Below are positions 46,997-55,002 of a DNA stretch of 64,000 nucleotides, piece by piece. The position numbers were made by a program, and so were the translations under genes. The notes beneath the pieces were generated by a model, which worked only from the letters and a program-made list of their open reading frames with translations, did not search any database and was not told the DNA's origin. The stretch comes from an uncultured Nitrosomonas sp. (GTDB lineage Bacteria > Pseudomonadota > Gammaproteobacteria > Burkholderiales > Nitrosomonadaceae): contig CAYXFV010000003.1 of assembly GCA_964464365.1 (NCBI GenBank), positions 4,477-68,476 on the forward strand, read 5' to 3'. Position 1 is the stretch's first letter; the number at the start of each line of letters is the position of its first letter.

Positions 46997-48106
46997 CTAC
47001 AGCCGGATGATCGGTTTAATCGTGATACCTTTCTCACTATCTTCAGCGGCCTGATTGATTTGATCGAGAGAATAAAATTTCACCAGTTTATCGAAAGGAA
47101 ATCTTCCCTGTTGATATAGTTCAACGAGTGCCGGAATGAAGAGATCCGGTTTACTATCGCCTTCGATGATCCCGATAATGCGTTTCCCTGTCGTCATCAC
47201 ACCGTTCACATCGAAGCTCGCTTCCGTACCCAAGGCAGGTGCACCGACAATGCCGCATGTTCCCCGAATAGCCAACGCATCGATGGCTTGACGCAATACG
47301 GCCGGGCGTCCGCTCGATTCCAGCGCGAAATCGGCACCGCCGCCGGTAATTTCACGAACTGCTTCGACGGGATCAATTTCCCGGCTGTTGATAGTATGGG
47401 TTGCACCAAGTTCCATCGCCAAGACCAGGCGTGAAGGAACCACATCTGCCGCGATGATTGTGGTAGCACCCGCAACGCGCGCAGCCATCACGGCACTCAA
47501 CCCTACTGCGCCGCCGCCGAATGCGACAAAACTGCTGCCAGGATTGACTTTGAGTGCGTTTATAACGGCTCCGGCACCAGTTTGAATGCCGCAACCCAGC
47601 GGGCCAAGTAGCTCCAAGGGCGCATCGCTGGGAACTTTGATGACGTTACGCTCATGCACGAGCGCAAATGTGCCAAACGACGATTGCCCAAAGAAATGAT
47701 CGTGAACCGGCTCTGAAGTATTACCTGTTGTAAAGGTTGACGTACTGCCGTCTTCACGTGCACCATTGAAATTCAGGGCATAAAAATGCTCGCAATAGGT
47801 CAAATCACCGCGTAAACAGGGCTTGCAGTGGCCACACCACATATAGGTCAGCACAACATGGTCGCCAACAGCGACTTTTTTTACATGGCTGCCAATCTGT
47901 TCGACCACTCCGGAGCCTTCATGCCCTAATACCACCGGCAGCGGCACCTCATAGAGCTGGTCGCGTGCGACCATATCGGTATGGCACATACCTGTTGCTA
48001 CGATCCGCACCCGCACCTCATCGGACCGAGGTTCATCCTGAGCTAATTCTTCGATCTGAAAAGGGCCACCTTTCTGGCGAACAACTGCTGCCTTGATTTT
48101 TCTCAT
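46997..48106 (-). CDS. Zn/NAD(P)-dependent aryl-alcohol dehydrogenase (XylB-like)
   Basis: GMCHTD, GHEGSG, CGHCKPC...C structural Zn site, [22 protein letters not shown]. Confidence 0.88.
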
Positions 48107-48156: not shown

Positions 48157-49701
48157 CTAGCGAATGCCCGATTTTCCCGGTGCAAGGATTCCATTCGGAT
48201 CCAACGCTTTTTTAAGTGTTTTGTGAACATTTCTCTGCACCGGACCATAAGTTTCTGCGACTTTATCCATAAAAGCCGTATTGACCCGATAAATGCCATA
48301 TCCTCGCGCAGAGAATTCGGTCAGCAATTCATCGAAGCACTGGTAAGCCGCTTTCGTCTGTTCGGGATCAGTCTTGTCGTACAGGACATCAACAATATGA
48401 TGCATATCACGCATCCCGACGATAAACTCGCCGGAATAATCCAGTCCGTACTTGGCCAGTATTTGCTTGGTCAAGGCCATTTGTTTAAGGGTTTCACTGC
48501 CACGCGCTTGTGAGACGGGCGCAAACCACATCGATCCACCACCTCCGCGCCAGTTATATAAGGAAAATTCCGTCAGTGTCATTTCTCCGCGCATGAGCTT
48601 GGCGCGGTAAGCAAACGCAGGATCATCCGCCGCTTCCTGCTCCGTCAGGATTTTTGCCTTGCCCGATTGGTCGAATGCCTGTGTCACGATTTTCCAATTC
48701 ACATCAATCTGTTCCTGTGTGCCATAGAGTGCGGCATACACATTCCAGATTCCCAGTTTGTGATCTTTCATGATTCGATAAACTGCCTCATCCGGGATCG
48801 AGCCCGGCCCGGATACATAATCACTACGCTGGGCTTTTACGGGTGCCTCATACAGCGCATGAGCGATGACCACAGCATTGGGAATGACACCGCTGATACG
48901 CAACGGACGAATCGTTTCGACGATTTCGACGATATCTTCTTCCTGTTGATATTGAATGACAAACGGCTTGAATGCTGGTGGCTCGGGCATCAACCAAAAA
49001 CCGAATTTGGTGACGATGCCATAGTTGGATTGCGTAAAAATACCATCCAGGTAAGGACCATACCCCCATTTGAATACCTGCCAGGTGTTGGAGTTGGGCA
49101 TCGAGCCCATGCCGGTGCGCAGTACTTCGCCATTTGCCAGAACGACTTCCATGCCGCAAGCGAATAAAAAGTGTTCGCCATAGGGTGTGTAACCCACGCC
49201 GCGATCCAGCGTATTGCCAACCGGTCCCGCGATGGCGGAGGGCGCGGGCATCGACAGCCATAAGCCCAGTTTGTGCTCTTTGATGTAATCGTAGAGTTGC
49301 TGATAAGTTACGCCCGGTTCAACCAGGGCAAAAGCTAAATCCTTATCCACTTCGAGAATGCGATTCATGCGTTTCAAATCAAGCACCACCTGGCCACGCT
49401 CTGCCGGTGCTGCCGAGCCATAGCCCAAGTTTTTTCCGGTGGAAATCATCCAGATCGGTACTTTGTATTGATTGCAAATCGCAACGATTTTCTGGATTTG
49501 TTCGACGGTTGTGGCCAGTAGTGCCGCGGACGGCGTATGCTCCGCATCGGAAACCGGCATCATTGTCTTAATGTAAGGTGCAAGCTGTTCTGCGCTGGTA
49601 AGCACAGAATCATCACCCAGTACCTTGCGAAAATCATTGATGGCTGCATCGAAGTTTTTTTTGGAAACGCCTTTGGGCAATGCGATATATTGACTGGTCA
49701 T
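48157..49701 (-). CDS. pchF: p-cresol methylhydroxylase-type flavoprotein subunit (VAO/PCMH family)
   Basis: STGKNLGYG, GNTLDRGVGYTPYG, and EFSLYNWRGGGGSMWFAPVS containing the Tyr that carries O-tyrosyl FAD in PchF; RDMHH.VDVLY; DPNGILAPGKSGI. Confidence 0.88.
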   Translation of the reverse strand: MTSQYIALPKGVSKKNFDAAINDFRKVLGDDSVLTSAEQLAPYIKTMMPVSDAEHTPSAALLATTVEQIQKIVAICNQYKVPIWMISTGKNLGYGSAAPAERGQVVLDLKRMNRILEVDKDLAFALVEPGVTYQQLYDYIKEHKLGLWLSMPAPSAIAGPVGNTLDRGVGYTPYGEHFLFACGMEVVLANGEVLRTGMGSMPNSNTWQVFKWGYGPYLDGIFTQSNYGIVTKFGFWLMPEPPAFKPFVIQYQQEEDIVEIVETIRPLRISGVIPNAVVIAHALYEAPVKAQRSDYVSGPGSIPDEAVYRIMKDHKLGIWNVYAALYGTQEQIDVNWKIVTQAFDQSGKAKILTEQEAADDPAFAYRAKLMRGEMTLTEFSLYNWRGGGGSMWFAPVSQARGSETLKQMALTKQILAKYGLDYSGEFIVGMRDMHHIVDVLYDKTDPEQTKAAYQCFDELLTEFSARGYGIYRVNTAFMDKVAETYGPVQRNVHKTLKKALDPNGILAPGKSGIR

Positions 49702-49713
49702 GCTGTGTTCTCC

Positions 49714-50664
49714 CTATACGTCGATTACAAACGAGACGAAATGTTTCCCCGACAATCCATGATGATCCGGATAGTGCTGACCCGACCGATGCACGAATGC
49801 GCGGCTGGAGCATGATTCTTGATGCGTACCCATACCCAATGCAGTTGCTACAACCGCATAACCGGTAGTTTCTACCCAGTTGTCAAATCGGAGCGGTTCA
49901 ATTGTTGTTCCCACCGCTGTTTTGTTTTGATCGATGGAAGATTCATCACCCTGGGATGATATTGATTTCCAATTTTCTGATGCTTTCCAGCCAATCAGTT
50001 GACTGGCTTCCAGCGGAGAAACTCCGGCACAATGCAAATGAGTTGCGGGTTGCTCAGCCAGCCAATAAGACGAGAACTCCGCTAATGATGAATCTTTCAT
50101 TGCACTATTATCTCCCACCGTTTGTTCAAGAAAATTCTCGACAATAGAGAAATCATGCTGATTTTGGGTGAGCAGGGACGCCAGTATTCCTCCCGCGCTG
50201 TATGCCGGTAATGCGGTAGTCCACACATGTCTCATAGGGAAGGAAGCATCATTGCTGGAAGAAGAGATATGTGAACCCAGTGAAAGCAGGCGGCCTTCAA
50301 AATTTCTTATCAATTCAGTAAATATGGCCGCACTGGCATGATCCATGACAGCAATCCAACGCATATTACGGGATTGCGTCAATAAATCCACGATGTGCAG
50401 CGGGTTGGTTAATAGCTCATTTTCTAATTTAAATGCCGGTAATGTGCCTTGACGGTAATTGATATAGCGGGTGCAAGCGGCCTGAGCGCCTCTGGCAAAT
50501 GCTTCGTCTATGGGGGTATTACCCAGTAACAGCTGACAATTGCGCGTGCTACCGGAGAGCGTTTGGCTGATGGATACTGCTTGAGTGACTGTAGGAATAC
50601 CGAAGGCCAGCAAGGTTCCACCAGTGAGCATGCCTTTGATGAGGCTACGTCGCGTTTCATCCAT
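49714..50664 (-). CDS. Hypothetical protein in the pchX position, with a twin-arginine-like N-terminus
   Basis: Begins MDETRRSLIKGMLTGGTLLAFGIPTVTQA; lies between the pchC-like and pchF-like genes. Confidence 0.7.
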   Translation of the reverse strand: MDETRRSLIKGMLTGGTLLAFGIPTVTQAVSISQTLSGSTRNCQLLLGNTPIDEAFARGAQAACTRYINYRQGTLPAFKLENELLTNPLHIVDLLTQSRNMRWIAVMDHASAAIFTELIRNFEGRLLSLGSHISSSSNDASFPMRHVWTTALPAYSAGGILASLLTQNQHDFSIVENFLEQTVGDNSAMKDSSLAEFSSYWLAEQPATHLHCAGVSPLEASQLIGWKASENWKSISSQGDESSIDQNKTAVGTTIEPLRFDNWVETTGYAVVATALGMGTHQESCSSRAFVHRSGQHYPDHHGLSGKHFVSFVIDV

Positions 50665-50678
50665 GGAATGTGACCTCC

Positions 50679-51008
50679 TTAATGCTGAGCTTCTTTTTTT
50701 GAAATGAAATCCGCTAGTTTTGCTAATGACTCGTCGTCGATTTCTGAAGTACGAAAGGCGGGCATGGCCCGATTTCCATTGCGAACGACTGCACGGATAT
50801 AAATTGCAGGAAGTTCGCGATTGCGAATTGGCGGCCCGACATGGGCTTCATGACAATAAGCGCAAATTTTGGCGTAAATTTCCGCGCCATCTTTCCATGC
50901 AAATCCAGGAGTGGTTTTCTCATCTTGTGCTGACCATGCGTTACCGGCCACAAAAATGATTGCAACTATGCAGCCGACTATATAGCTTCCCAATTTTGTT
51001 TTTTTCAT
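50679..51008 (-). CDS. pchC: Cytochrome c subunit of p-cresol methylhydroxylase type
   Basis: Sec signal, CAYCH heme motif, YIRAVVRNGNRAMPAF...IDDESL typical of PchC. RBS ggag before ATG 51008 (alternative start 51026). Confidence 0.85.
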   Translation of the reverse strand: MKKTKLGSYIVGCIVAIIFVAGNAWSAQDEKTTPGFAWKDGAEIYAKICAYCHEAHVGPPIRNRELPAIYIRAVVRNGNRAMPAFRTSEIDDESLAKLADFISKKEAQH

Positions 51009-51033
51009 ATGAATTCTCCCTTCCATGATCCTG

Positions 51034-51852
51034 TTACCACAGCAAACTCGTCACTTTCTTTCCCATAATTTCATCATTGAATACCACCTTGGCTATGGGT
51101 GAACCGACGCAAGCGATACCATAGCAAACATGCAAGGGCAATAAATGCTCTTCCCTCGGATGACAAAATCGAGCAGAGGGTGCCTTCTCCCACTCAATCA
51201 ATCGTTGTTCACGTGCTTCAGATAAAATCACCGGGTTGGTACACGTTTCAATCAACCAATGATCAAACCCTTCATTTTCTTTGCTGCAATCGATATCGTT
51301 CGAGAAAAATGTTTTCAAATTATGAAATGACATGCCTGAACCAATAATCAGAATATTCTTCTCACGTAAAGATGCAATCGCTTTTCCAAGCGAAATATGC
51401 ATTCGAGGGTTTAAATTTTTCAGCAATGATAGCTGGATACAAGGAATCCGGGTCTGCGGAAACATCAGCTTGAGCGGCACAAACAATCCATGATCAAAAC
51501 CGCGTTGATCATCAAGTCTCGCCGGTACACCGCTTGCCATTAATAGCGCATAAATTTCTTTCGCCAGCCCGGGATTACCCGGTGCCGCATATTGAATTGT
51601 GTAGGCCTCAGCAGGAAACCCATAGTAATCATAGATTATTTCAGGGTTATTACCACTTGTTATCGTTGCTTGAACTTCTTCCCAGTGAGCACTGATGACT
51701 AAAATCGCCGATGGTTCACCCAGCTCACTGACAATTTTCTTCAGAAAAGAAACCATCTCTTCATGCCCTCTGTCACCAAGAACAGGTAATGGGCCACCGC
51801 CGTGCGGCAAATACAGAACAGGTGAAAGCACTTGTGATATCTGGCGCGTCAT
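51034..51852 (-). CDS. Class III extradiol dioxygenase, DODA/YgiD (LigB) family
   Basis: LPHGGGP, ISAHW, RGFDHGLFVPL, GSGMSFHNL, HPREEHLLPL. Confidence 0.88.
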   Translation of the reverse strand: MTRQISQVLSPVLYLPHGGGPLPVLGDRGHEEMVSFLKKIVSELGEPSAILVISAHWEEVQATITSGNNPEIIYDYYGFPAEAYTIQYAAPGNPGLAKEIYALLMASGVPARLDDQRGFDHGLFVPLKLMFPQTRIPCIQLSLLKNLNPRMHISLGKAIASLREKNILIIGSGMSFHNLKTFFSNDIDCSKENEGFDHWLIETCTNPVILSEAREQRLIEWEKAPSARFCHPREEHLLPLHVCYGIACVGSPIAKVVFNDEIMGKKVTSLLW

Positions 51853-51909
51853 CGTTAAAAACTTCCGCTCGTGGAGCGGAGTATTTTATTAAGCCTGTGT
51901 ACTATCTGA

Positions 51910-52644: not shown

Positions 52645-55002
52645 TTACTCCAGCTTGGTAGTACGCAACCGCAATGCATTGCCAATCACGCTGACTGAAG
52701 ATAGCGCCATCGCAGCCGCAGCAAAAATCGGTGACAGCAAGATACCGAAGAACGGATACAGCACTCCGGCTGCGATCGGTATGCCAGCCGTATTGTAGAT
52801 AAAGGCGAAAAACAGATTTTGGCGGATGTTACGCATTGTCGCCGCGGAGAGGCGTCGTGCCCGGACAATGCCTAGTAGATCACCGCGTAGCAAGGTTACA
52901 CCAGCGCTTTCGATCGCGACATCAGTGCCCGTACCCATGGCGATGCCAACATCGGCAGTAGCCAGTGCTGGGGCATCGTTGACACCATCGCCCGCCATTG
53001 TGACCACGCGTCCTTGCTTGCGCAACCGTGCCACAACCGCTGCCTTCTGGTCAGGTAACACTTCCGCATCTACCTCGTCGATACCCAATTGCCGGGCAAC
53101 AGCCTCGGCCGTAATGCGGTTGTCGCCGGTTAGCATGACGATGCGAATTCCCTCGGCATGCAAGGCATCGATAGCGGCAGGCGTCGATTCCTTCACTGGA
53201 TCAGCGATGGCGACTATACCAGCGGCCACCCCATTGATCGCCACGAAAATCGCTGTCGCTCCATCCTGACGCAGTGCATCTGCTTCCGTTTCTAGCACAC
53301 CGGCGTCGATACCCTGTTCCGCAAGGAATTTTGCGTTGCCCAGTACAATCTGGTGATCATCGACGATACCGAGCACGCCCTTGCCGGTCGGCGAGTCGAA
53401 GTCGGTTATCTTGGCAAGCGGGATCGACCGTTCCTTGGCCGCATCGACGATGGCGGCGGCCAGTGGATGTTCACTTCCCTGCTCCAGACTGGCTGCGAGA
53501 CGCAGCAGCTCAGTTTCGTCCATATCACCCGCAGGGCAGATTGCCGTGACTCTGGGCCTGCCTTCGGTCAGCGTGCCGGTCTTGTCGATCACGATCGTGT
53601 CGATTTTTTCCATATGCTCCAACGCTTCGGCATTTTTGATCAGAACACCTTCGGTCGCACCTCGCCCGACGCCAACCATGATCGACATCGGTGTCGCCAG
53701 GCCTAACGCGCACGGACAGGCGATAATCAGTACGCTGACGGCTACGATCAGGGCATAACCCATGGTTGGCGACGGACCCCAGACCGACCAGGCAGCAAAG
53801 GCGAGTACGGCGATCAGAATGACTGCTGGCACGAACCAGCTAGCAACGATGTCCGCCAAGCGCTGAATCGGTGCACGCGAGCGCTGCGCTTGCGATACCA
53901 TCCGGACGATCTGTGCCAGCATCGTGTCACGTCCAACTTTCTCAGCGCGCATCACGAAACTGCCCTGGCCATTGATGGTGCCGCCGATCACTTTGTCTTC
54001 GGGCTGCTTGCGAACCGGCATGGATTCACCGGTTACCATCGATTCGTCAATGTTTGAGCCACCTTCGATCACTTTACCGTCGACGGGTACTCGGTCGCCG
54101 GGACGGACCCGCAGGCGGTCACCTACTACCACCTGATCCAGGTTGATATCCCTTTCTACATCGTTATCATCAAGACGACGCGCCATAGTGGGCGACAAAT
54201 TGAGCAAGGCCTTTATCGCGCCAGAGGTGCGTTCGCGTGCCCGTAATTCCAGTACCTGACCCAACAGTACCAGCACGGTGATGACCGCCGCCGCCTCGAA
54301 ATAAACCGCAACCGCTCCATCGGCGCTGCGAAAGGTATCAGGAAAGAAATCGGGCACAACGGTTGCCACGATGCTATAGAGCCAGGCAACGCCAGTACCC
54401 ATCGCAATCAGTGTGAACATATTTAGCGCGCGATTCACGATAGATTGCCAGCCGCGCACAAAGAACGGCCATCCTGCCCACAAAACGACCGGTGTCGCCA
54501 ATGGCAATTGTATCCAATTGGAAGTCTGCGTAGACATTAGGTGTGCGAGCCCGATTAGATGGCCGCCCATCTCCAAAATGAAGACTGGTGTGGTTAATAT
54601 CAGGCCAATCCAGAAGCGACGAGTCATATCGGCGAGTTCCGGACTAGGCGCATCGTCGAGCGACACTTCTGCCGGTTCCAATGCCATGCCGCAGATCGGA
54701 CAACTTCCTGGCCCGACCTGCCGGATTTGTGGGTGCATCGGACAGGTATAGATAGTGTCGGATGTGGATTCCTCGATTGGAATCTTGCCCGCTAGATAAA
54801 TATCGGGTCCGGCCACGAATTTGTCGTGACAGTGGGCAGAGCAGAAATAGTAAGTCTGCTCACCATGCTCAGCGCGATGCTTTGTTGTATGTGAATCGAC
54901 CGCCATGCCGCAGACGGGATCAGTTGCCATGGCACGGTGGTTCATGTGATGATCGTTGTCATGTTGTGCATGTTTTTGATAGTCTTGAGTCATGACTTGC
55001 AA
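52645..55002 (-). CDS. copA: P1B-type heavy-metal (Cu+/Ag+) ATPase with His-rich leader, YHS domain and CPMHP domain
   Basis: DPVCGM...YYFCS..C, YTCPMHP...[41 protein letters not shown] and MALSS Cu(I) ligands. Confidence 0.92.

Follow-up and report, generated by a model that had tools for sequence, protein, structure and literature searches.

In the window, that is, the whole 64,000-nucleotide stretch of Nitrosomonas DNA analysed here, an open reading frame on the minus strand (49714–50664) encodes X, a long-form PchX-family protein of 316 residues with a Tat signal and a predicted alpha/beta mature domain, which probably serves as an export escort. According to the reading favoured here, with a probability of about 0.65, X is exported by the Tat system, the flavoprotein PchF hitchhikes on it into the periplasm and X then leaves. 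Three features lead to this proposal: PchF, which would be loaded with FAD in the cytoplasm, has no signal peptide, X alone among the proteins of the cluster bears a Tat leader, and the two genes are inseparable. Beyond the Tat leader of X and its genetic inseparability from PchF, every step of the escort reading is one that we infer. An earlier note on this DNA had suggested that X is a Tat carrier for the FAD subunit; the invariant twin arginines (RR), the presence of TatC and the constant adjacency of X and PchF support the suggestion, which is still drawn from sequence.

The genes concerned all lie on the minus strand. The gene for a PchC-like cytochrome c (50679–51026; PF13442, 69 bits against chain C of 1DII) is followed by X, by the gene for the PchF-like flavoprotein (48157–49701; 782 bits against 1DII_A of Pseudomonas putida) and by that for a Zn-dependent alcohol dehydrogenase without a signal peptide (46997–48106), the fourth gene of a nitrifier module with the order cytochrome c–X–PchF–alcohol dehydrogenase (C-X-F-ADH). 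The gap between pchC and X measures 14 nt and reads GGAGGTCACATTCC; that between X and pchF measures 12 nt. A GGAGG ribosome-binding site (50674–50678, minus strand) stands directly 3' of the pchC stop codon and 9 nt upstream of the ATG of X, which has no earlier in-frame start, and a second Shine-Dalgarno sequence, GGAG, is contained in the 12-nt gap ahead of pchF. The motif LYNWRGGGG occupies residues 381–389 of PchF, and its Tyr382 aligns with Tyr384, the FAD-linking residue of the P. putida flavoprotein.

The upstream surroundings of the module, also on the minus strand, are more variable. A LigB/DODA-type extradiol dioxygenase gene (51034–51852) is located 7 nt upstream of pchC and is preceded by an open reading frame for a WrbA-type quinone reductase (52515–51910). 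Between the two, at 51863–51881, a GC-rich hairpin has T-runs on either strand and may be a bidirectional terminator, in which case the pch transcript would begin with ligB. The LigB and WrbA pair is joined to the module in only some Nitrosomonas loci (L021–L034, L037, L040 and L067), LigB occurs without WrbA at some further loci, and the pair is not linked to the module in Nitrosospira or Nitrospira. An open reading frame for a copper-type P1B ATPase of 785 residues (52645–55002), with a His-rich N-terminus and CGM/CPxCGM metal-binding motifs, likewise adjoins the module in several Nitrosomonas loci.

The N-terminus of X, MDETRRSLIKGMLTGGTLLAFGIPTVTQA, begins with MDETRRSLIKG, proceeds through a mildly hydrophobic stretch and reaches TQA|V at residues 27–30. 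The predicted Tat signal peptide, comprising residues 1–29 (MDET n-region, RR, h-region, TQA|V), is encoded at 50578–50664 and the codons of the twin arginines R5 and R6 at 50647–50652, both on the minus strand. The earlier note had described the gene between cytochrome and PchF as starting with a sequence close to the Tat consensus, and the segment T-R-R-S-L-I-K at residues 4–10 is indeed of the S/T-R-R-x-F-L-K kind. Its account of the two neighbouring proteins holds as well. Leader hydrophobicity, taken as the maximum Kyte-Doolittle mean over 12 residues, amounts to 3.26 for PchC, a Sec-like value accompanied by the CxxCH motif CAYCH at residue 55, to 1.65 for the h-region of X, a Tat-like value, and to 0.71 for PchF, which starts with MTSQYIALPKG and has no N-terminal hydrophobic segment and no leader. 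None of the PchF proteins in the loci examined, distant ones included, was found to carry its own leader, Tat or other.

Profile searches bear on the predicted Tat signal. The curated model TIGR01409 has a cut-off of 16.7 bits: the window copy of X scores 16.0 bits (E 0.012), just under this value, and the cut-off is exceeded by the Nitrospira defluvii orthologue (17.5 bits) and by a relative from Sulfuricurvum (20.3 bits). For PF10518, X relatives reach 17.8–21 bits, under the cut-off of 22.7 bits. When the X family profile is searched against the PDB, the matches are two Tat leaders only, one of which is the NapA signal peptide; moreover, some X relatives carry the NCBI name 'twin-arginine translocation signal domain-containing protein'. 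A small-x-small site follows the h-region in all 70 copies scanned, albeit with a lenient pattern. The source genome encodes TatC (PF00902, 232 bits), and X is the sole gene of the cluster with a Tat signal.

The X family is small, as HMMER run exhaustively against 1.84 billion cluster representatives retrieved only 66 matches; a set of 5.8 billion proteins yielded 136 homologues, which with few exceptions come from Nitrosomonas, Nitrosospira and Nitrotoga. X has no family match in Pfam, NCBIfam or PDB sequences, and tblastn against plasmids returned no match; the nearest cluster in the ESM Atlas is a set of 'putative Tat signal domain-containing protein' entries without a Pfam family. Within this family conservation of the twin arginines, one of the checks that the earlier note had proposed, is complete. 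R5 and R6 are invariant in three alignments of increasing breadth: together with K10 among 21 sequences, with E117, R120, H132 and H146 among 27 relatives extending down to 22% identity, and with R120 and H132 only among 78 sequences; across the copies compared, K10 comes close to invariance. The pair is also present in 72 of 72 genomic copies with a readable N-terminus, four of the 76 copies adjoining PchF having been left out of the count on account of a contig end or masking, and it stands four residues from the start in 65 of the 70 copies measured. Judged from these alignments, the RR motif is conserved far beyond chance.

The linkage of X to PchF is equally strict. A scan with PchF as query, one genome per species, gave 80 loci, four of them without an upstream flank; an X-family open reading frame adjoins PchF in all 76 loci with enough flank, lying between cytochrome and PchF in 75 of these and downstream of PchF (order C-F-X) in one (L078). 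The hosts are Nitrosomonas, Nitrosospira, Nitrosovibrio, Ca. Nitrotoga and, from another phylum, Nitrospira, together with Rhodocyclaceae, the Oxalobacteraceae-type genera Telluria, Janthinobacterium and Herminiimonas, and a Solirubrobacterales MAG. Co-occurrence was assessed in an even set of 401 genomes of the same order, with thresholds of E < 1e-14 for X and at least 65% identity for PchF: the two genes occur in exactly the same eight genomes and always side by side, and one extra X match is confined to the leader region of a different protein. The source genome contains one copy of each. Among nine genomes sampled within the genus, three harbour both genes (G000, G513 and G707) and six neither (G159, G183, G555, G595, G635 and G672), a both-or-neither pattern which indicates that the X-PchF module belongs to the accessory genome and that its acquisition or loss involves both genes at once. 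A search for X-PchF fusions among longer proteins found none, a weak result as long proteins crowd the candidate list.

The module of cytochrome c, X, PchF and Zn alcohol dehydrogenase is common to Nitrosomonas, Nitrosospira, Nitrosovibrio, Ca. Nitrotoga and Nitrospira (loci L021–L081, L094 and L097), with the dehydrogenase downstream of PchF in most nitrifier loci. Its components evolve at very different rates. Averaged over the 62 loci in which PchF, PchC and X are all present, identity to the window copies is 89%, 62% and 50%, respectively; between Nitrosomonas and Nitrospira, identity is 88% for PchF and about 40% for X; and where PchF is approximately 70% identical, X is approximately 24% identical. 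Within the nitrifier module, PchF stays at 79–98% identity to the window copy (in Nitrospira defluvii, 88%), whereas X reaches only about 34–46% in Nitrosospira and Nitrospira loci, a contrast that speaks for strong selection on the enzyme and for likely transfer among nitrifiers. The fast divergence of X fits what is expected of a non-catalytic partner.

X takes the place of a gene already known from p-cresol catabolism, the pchX of P. putida pRA4000/pRA500-type operons, which similarly sits between the cytochrome and flavoprotein genes. The earlier note had placed X in the pchX position, and the N-terminal half of the protein, Tat leader included, is in fact homologous to the short X of a classical pchA-pchC-X-pchF operon. 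The connection is provided by a genome of the same order (G123) with the classical arrangement of aldehyde dehydrogenase (pchA), cytochrome c, X and PchF. Its PchF aligns with P. putida 1DII at 937 bits, and its X, 171 residues long, starts with MQTDRRSLLKG and has its closest relatives in Comamonas. A search with the X profile gave hits at E 6.6e-16 (the X of G123) and 8.1e-15, and hhalign pairs X with the G123 protein at a probability of 97.7% (E 2.4e-12, 125 columns). A Sulfuricurvum plasmid displays the same layout with an X relative of 192 residues; no Pseudomonas record is present among the PchF homologues of the plasmid library. By these profile comparisons nitrifier X is a long form of the pchX family, the link to P. 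putida PchX running through the operon homologue of G123. Given this homology between X and the short gene in the middle of a classical operon, the escort reading also addresses the pchX position. Two differences set the nitrifier version apart: X is approximately 145 residues longer than the classical short form, owing to a second lobe and a C-terminal strand, and the nitrifier operon has a Zn alcohol dehydrogenase gene instead of pchA.

The association extends to more distant flavocytochromes, namely loci with PchF-like genes of 39–43% identity. Where a cytochrome c gene is adjacent (L102, L103, L104, L106 and pNL2, the last being L001), an open reading frame of 122–175 residues with an RR leader adjoins too. 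These small proteins are remote relatives of the N-terminal half of X: hhalign pairs them with columns 1–120 of the X profile at a probability of 92.8% (E 3.9e-7), part of the score being supplied by the leader. At two further loci, L101 (G352) and L111 (G753), the PchF-like gene (41–43%) is followed by an RR-leader frame of 127 and 141 residues, respectively, and no adjacent cytochrome c was detected; the electron acceptor of these enzymes may be encoded elsewhere. PchF-like genes with neither partner (L105, L107, L108 and L112–L118) are mostly the most distant ones; most loci devoid of a cytochrome c are also devoid of the small Tat frame. One of the loci with neither partner, L112 (G735:C6), has an open reading frame of 980 residues at 3537–6479 with the PchF-like domain at residues 489–979, behind an N-terminal half of approximately 490 residues, and there is no cytochrome c or Tat partner nearby.

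The mature part of nitrifier X consists, after the leader, of an N-terminal lobe shared with the short forms, an extra lobe of approximately 100 residues and a conserved C-terminal strand. An AlphaFold2 model built from 78 sequences (pLDDT 80.9, pTM 0.81) predicts a leader helix at residues 3–20, a disordered linker at 22–38 and then an alpha/beta domain that ends in a strand at 308–315, the final block of residues having a mean pLDDT of 96. This strand, FVSFVIDV (49717–49740, minus strand), is kept in the 21- and 27-sequence alignments and is recognizable in the short Sulfuricurvum form. Foldseek against the PDB returned nothing at E <= 0.001. A wide VIA-align search retrieved lobes of type I periplasmic-binding proteins and LacI-like proteins over 98–138 residues at Z 7–9.5, values that fall in the tool's stated background range; the top match is a riboflavin-binding protein (Z 9.5, rmsd 11.6 A), with the others at Z 7–8.6. 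As the Z values are confined to this grey zone, a type I binding-protein/LacI-like fold was not assigned. A conserved metal site at HLHC...C of the long form was also considered and rejected: C212 is invariant in nitrifier copies, but distant long forms have L or T at this position.

p-Cresol methylhydroxylase (PCMH) is the textbook case of a flavocytochrome of the periplasm whose FAD is attached covalently, and its cytochrome is exported unfolded by Sec, as haem attachment demands. Kim et al. are said to have found in 1995 that PchC triggers the covalent attachment of FAD in PchF. In the proposed sequence of events, PchF would fold and bind FAD in the cytoplasm, where the mature domain of X would bind the folded flavoprotein. 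The signal peptide of X would direct the complex to TatABC and the two proteins would cross together by hitchhiking, the leader being cut after TQA. In the periplasm PchF would meet Sec-exported, haem-loaded PchC, which would trigger covalent FAD attachment at the tyrosine equivalent to Tyr384, and X would depart. The last step is suggested by purified and crystallised PCMH of the Pseudomonas type (crystals 1DII, 1WVE), an alpha2-beta2 assembly of flavoprotein and cytochrome chains with no third chain: with two chain types only in the crystals, X is more likely to be a transient escort than a permanent subunit and, unlike classical hitchhiker carriers, would have to dissociate after export. 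A speculative extension, to which only a low probability is accorded, is that X keeps PchF with non-covalent FAD export-competent and catalytically silent by occupying the PchC docking surface, with E117, R120, H132 and H146 forming the interface, until haem-loaded PchC displaces X and thereby triggers flavinylation. If so, X would act as a checkpoint at which export by Tat is coupled to the assembly that depends on Sec and Ccm.

Several observations weigh against the escort reading. The window copy falls short of the TIGR01409 cut-off, the fusion search was negative, if only weakly telling, and X is missing from the crystals. A PchF dimer with two X molecules, at approximately 175 kDa, would be a large cargo for Tat; the small Tat frame is present without an adjacent cytochrome c at L101 and L111; and the invariant E117, R120, H132 and H146, together with the predicted two-lobe fold, may mean that X has another function, either in addition or instead. 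These last features bear on an alternative in which X, once exported by Tat, has an independent accessory task in the periplasm (binding a substrate or flavin, serving as partner in electron transfer, or assisting maturation, for example) and PchF is exported by other means. The few invariant residues of the mature domain agree with such a role, as do the nearest structural matches, the type I binding-protein/LacI-like lobes headed by the riboflavin-binding protein; however, scores of Z 7–9 lie within the range of unrelated models and Foldseek lends them no match at its threshold. The short (171–192 residues) and minimal (122–141 residues) relatives have no second lobe and hence cannot be binding proteins of this type. 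Furthermore, PchF has no other export signal in any locus examined, and a Sec-exported cytochrome is unable to carry a folded flavoprotein. This alternative is regarded as unlikely.

Should X indeed export PchF, it might afterwards stay as a permanent third subunit, or as a membrane tether through an uncleaved leader, at least in the long nitrifier form. The extra lobe of approximately 100 residues, missing from the classical short form, speaks for this, as does the membrane-bound state of the Geobacter enzyme. A parallel is offered by FAD-glucose dehydrogenase, whose gamma subunit remains in its complex (PMC6719666). Nevertheless, the small-x-small site, under the lenient pattern, recurs in every one of the 70 copies, the disordered linker that the model places behind the leader helix fits a cleavable signal and the crystallised Pseudomonas enzyme is devoid of a third chain, all of which makes a lasting attachment improbable. 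Far more remote is the notion that the twin arginines have no export role and that X acts in the cytoplasm, for instance as a folding or flavin-loading chaperone. Nothing speaks for it specifically apart from the narrow shortfall of the window copy in TIGR01409, a cut-off that orthologues exceed, and both the fixed distance of the invariant pair from the start and the completeness of the leader architecture speak against it.

In the searchable literature no function is given for pchX, which is named in a p-cresol context once, as an unexplained operon member, and there is neither an account of how the signal-less PCMH flavoprotein exits the cytoplasm nor localization data on X-PchF. PCMH is described as periplasmic in P. 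putida in the passage of PMC12724174 that cites Hopper 1985, and this 2025 study ascribes the localization of the enzyme to the Sec signal peptide of the cytochrome, which would guide the complex (PMC12724174). If the escort reading is true, pchX gains a function and the short list of known hitchhiker carriers of the Tat system is extended by an unrelated family; to express enzymes of the PCMH, eugenol-hydroxylase or bisphenol-hydroxylase type in functional form in the periplasm may then require the X gene. The conservation pattern indicates that the C-X-F-ADH module is under strong selection in ammonia and nitrite oxidizers of two phyla, which raises the question of what purpose phenol oxidation by a 4-alkylphenol oxidizer serves in lithoautotrophic nitrifiers. 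One idea is that the module clears phenols arising from co-oxidation by ammonia monooxygenase, or phenolic nitrification inhibitors.

Among known systems, one of the closest analogues is the FAD-glucose dehydrogenase of Burkholderia cepacia. Its FAD subunit has no signal and cannot fold and be secreted without the small gamma subunit, a 'hitchhiker protein' that bears a Tat leader; the partner is a Sec-exported cytochrome c (PMC6719666). Gamma is a five-helix protein that stays in the mature complex (PMC6719666). Both systems thus combine a small Tat-signal protein, a signal-less FAD subunit and a Sec cytochrome c. The similarity ends there: X is unrelated to gamma in sequence and has a predicted alpha/beta structure, with strands along its whole length, rather than five helices, the flavoprotein is of the VAO/PCMH type in one system and of the GMC type in the other, and gamma is resident in the mature complex whereas X is missing from crystallised PCMH. 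Pfam, searched for a gamma-type family among others, returned none for X at thresholds as loose as E 0.1, nor for the X leader and five relatives at E 10. The nearest precedent for a released escort, as proposed for X, is MelC1, the caddie of Streptomyces tyrosinase, a Tat-signal helper that carries the signal-less enzyme across the membrane and is afterwards released; MelC1 is an unrelated protein, though, which also delivers copper and is part of secretion in a Gram-positive organism. Flavocytochrome c sulfide dehydrogenase, FccAB, likewise pairs a periplasmic flavoprotein with a cytochrome c, but its flavoprotein carries its own Tat leader and therefore needs no escort, whereas no PchF examined has one. 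Taken together, the comparison supports a view of X as a new protein family in the role of a Tat hitchhiker carrier, a mechanism already established for the unrelated gamma family.
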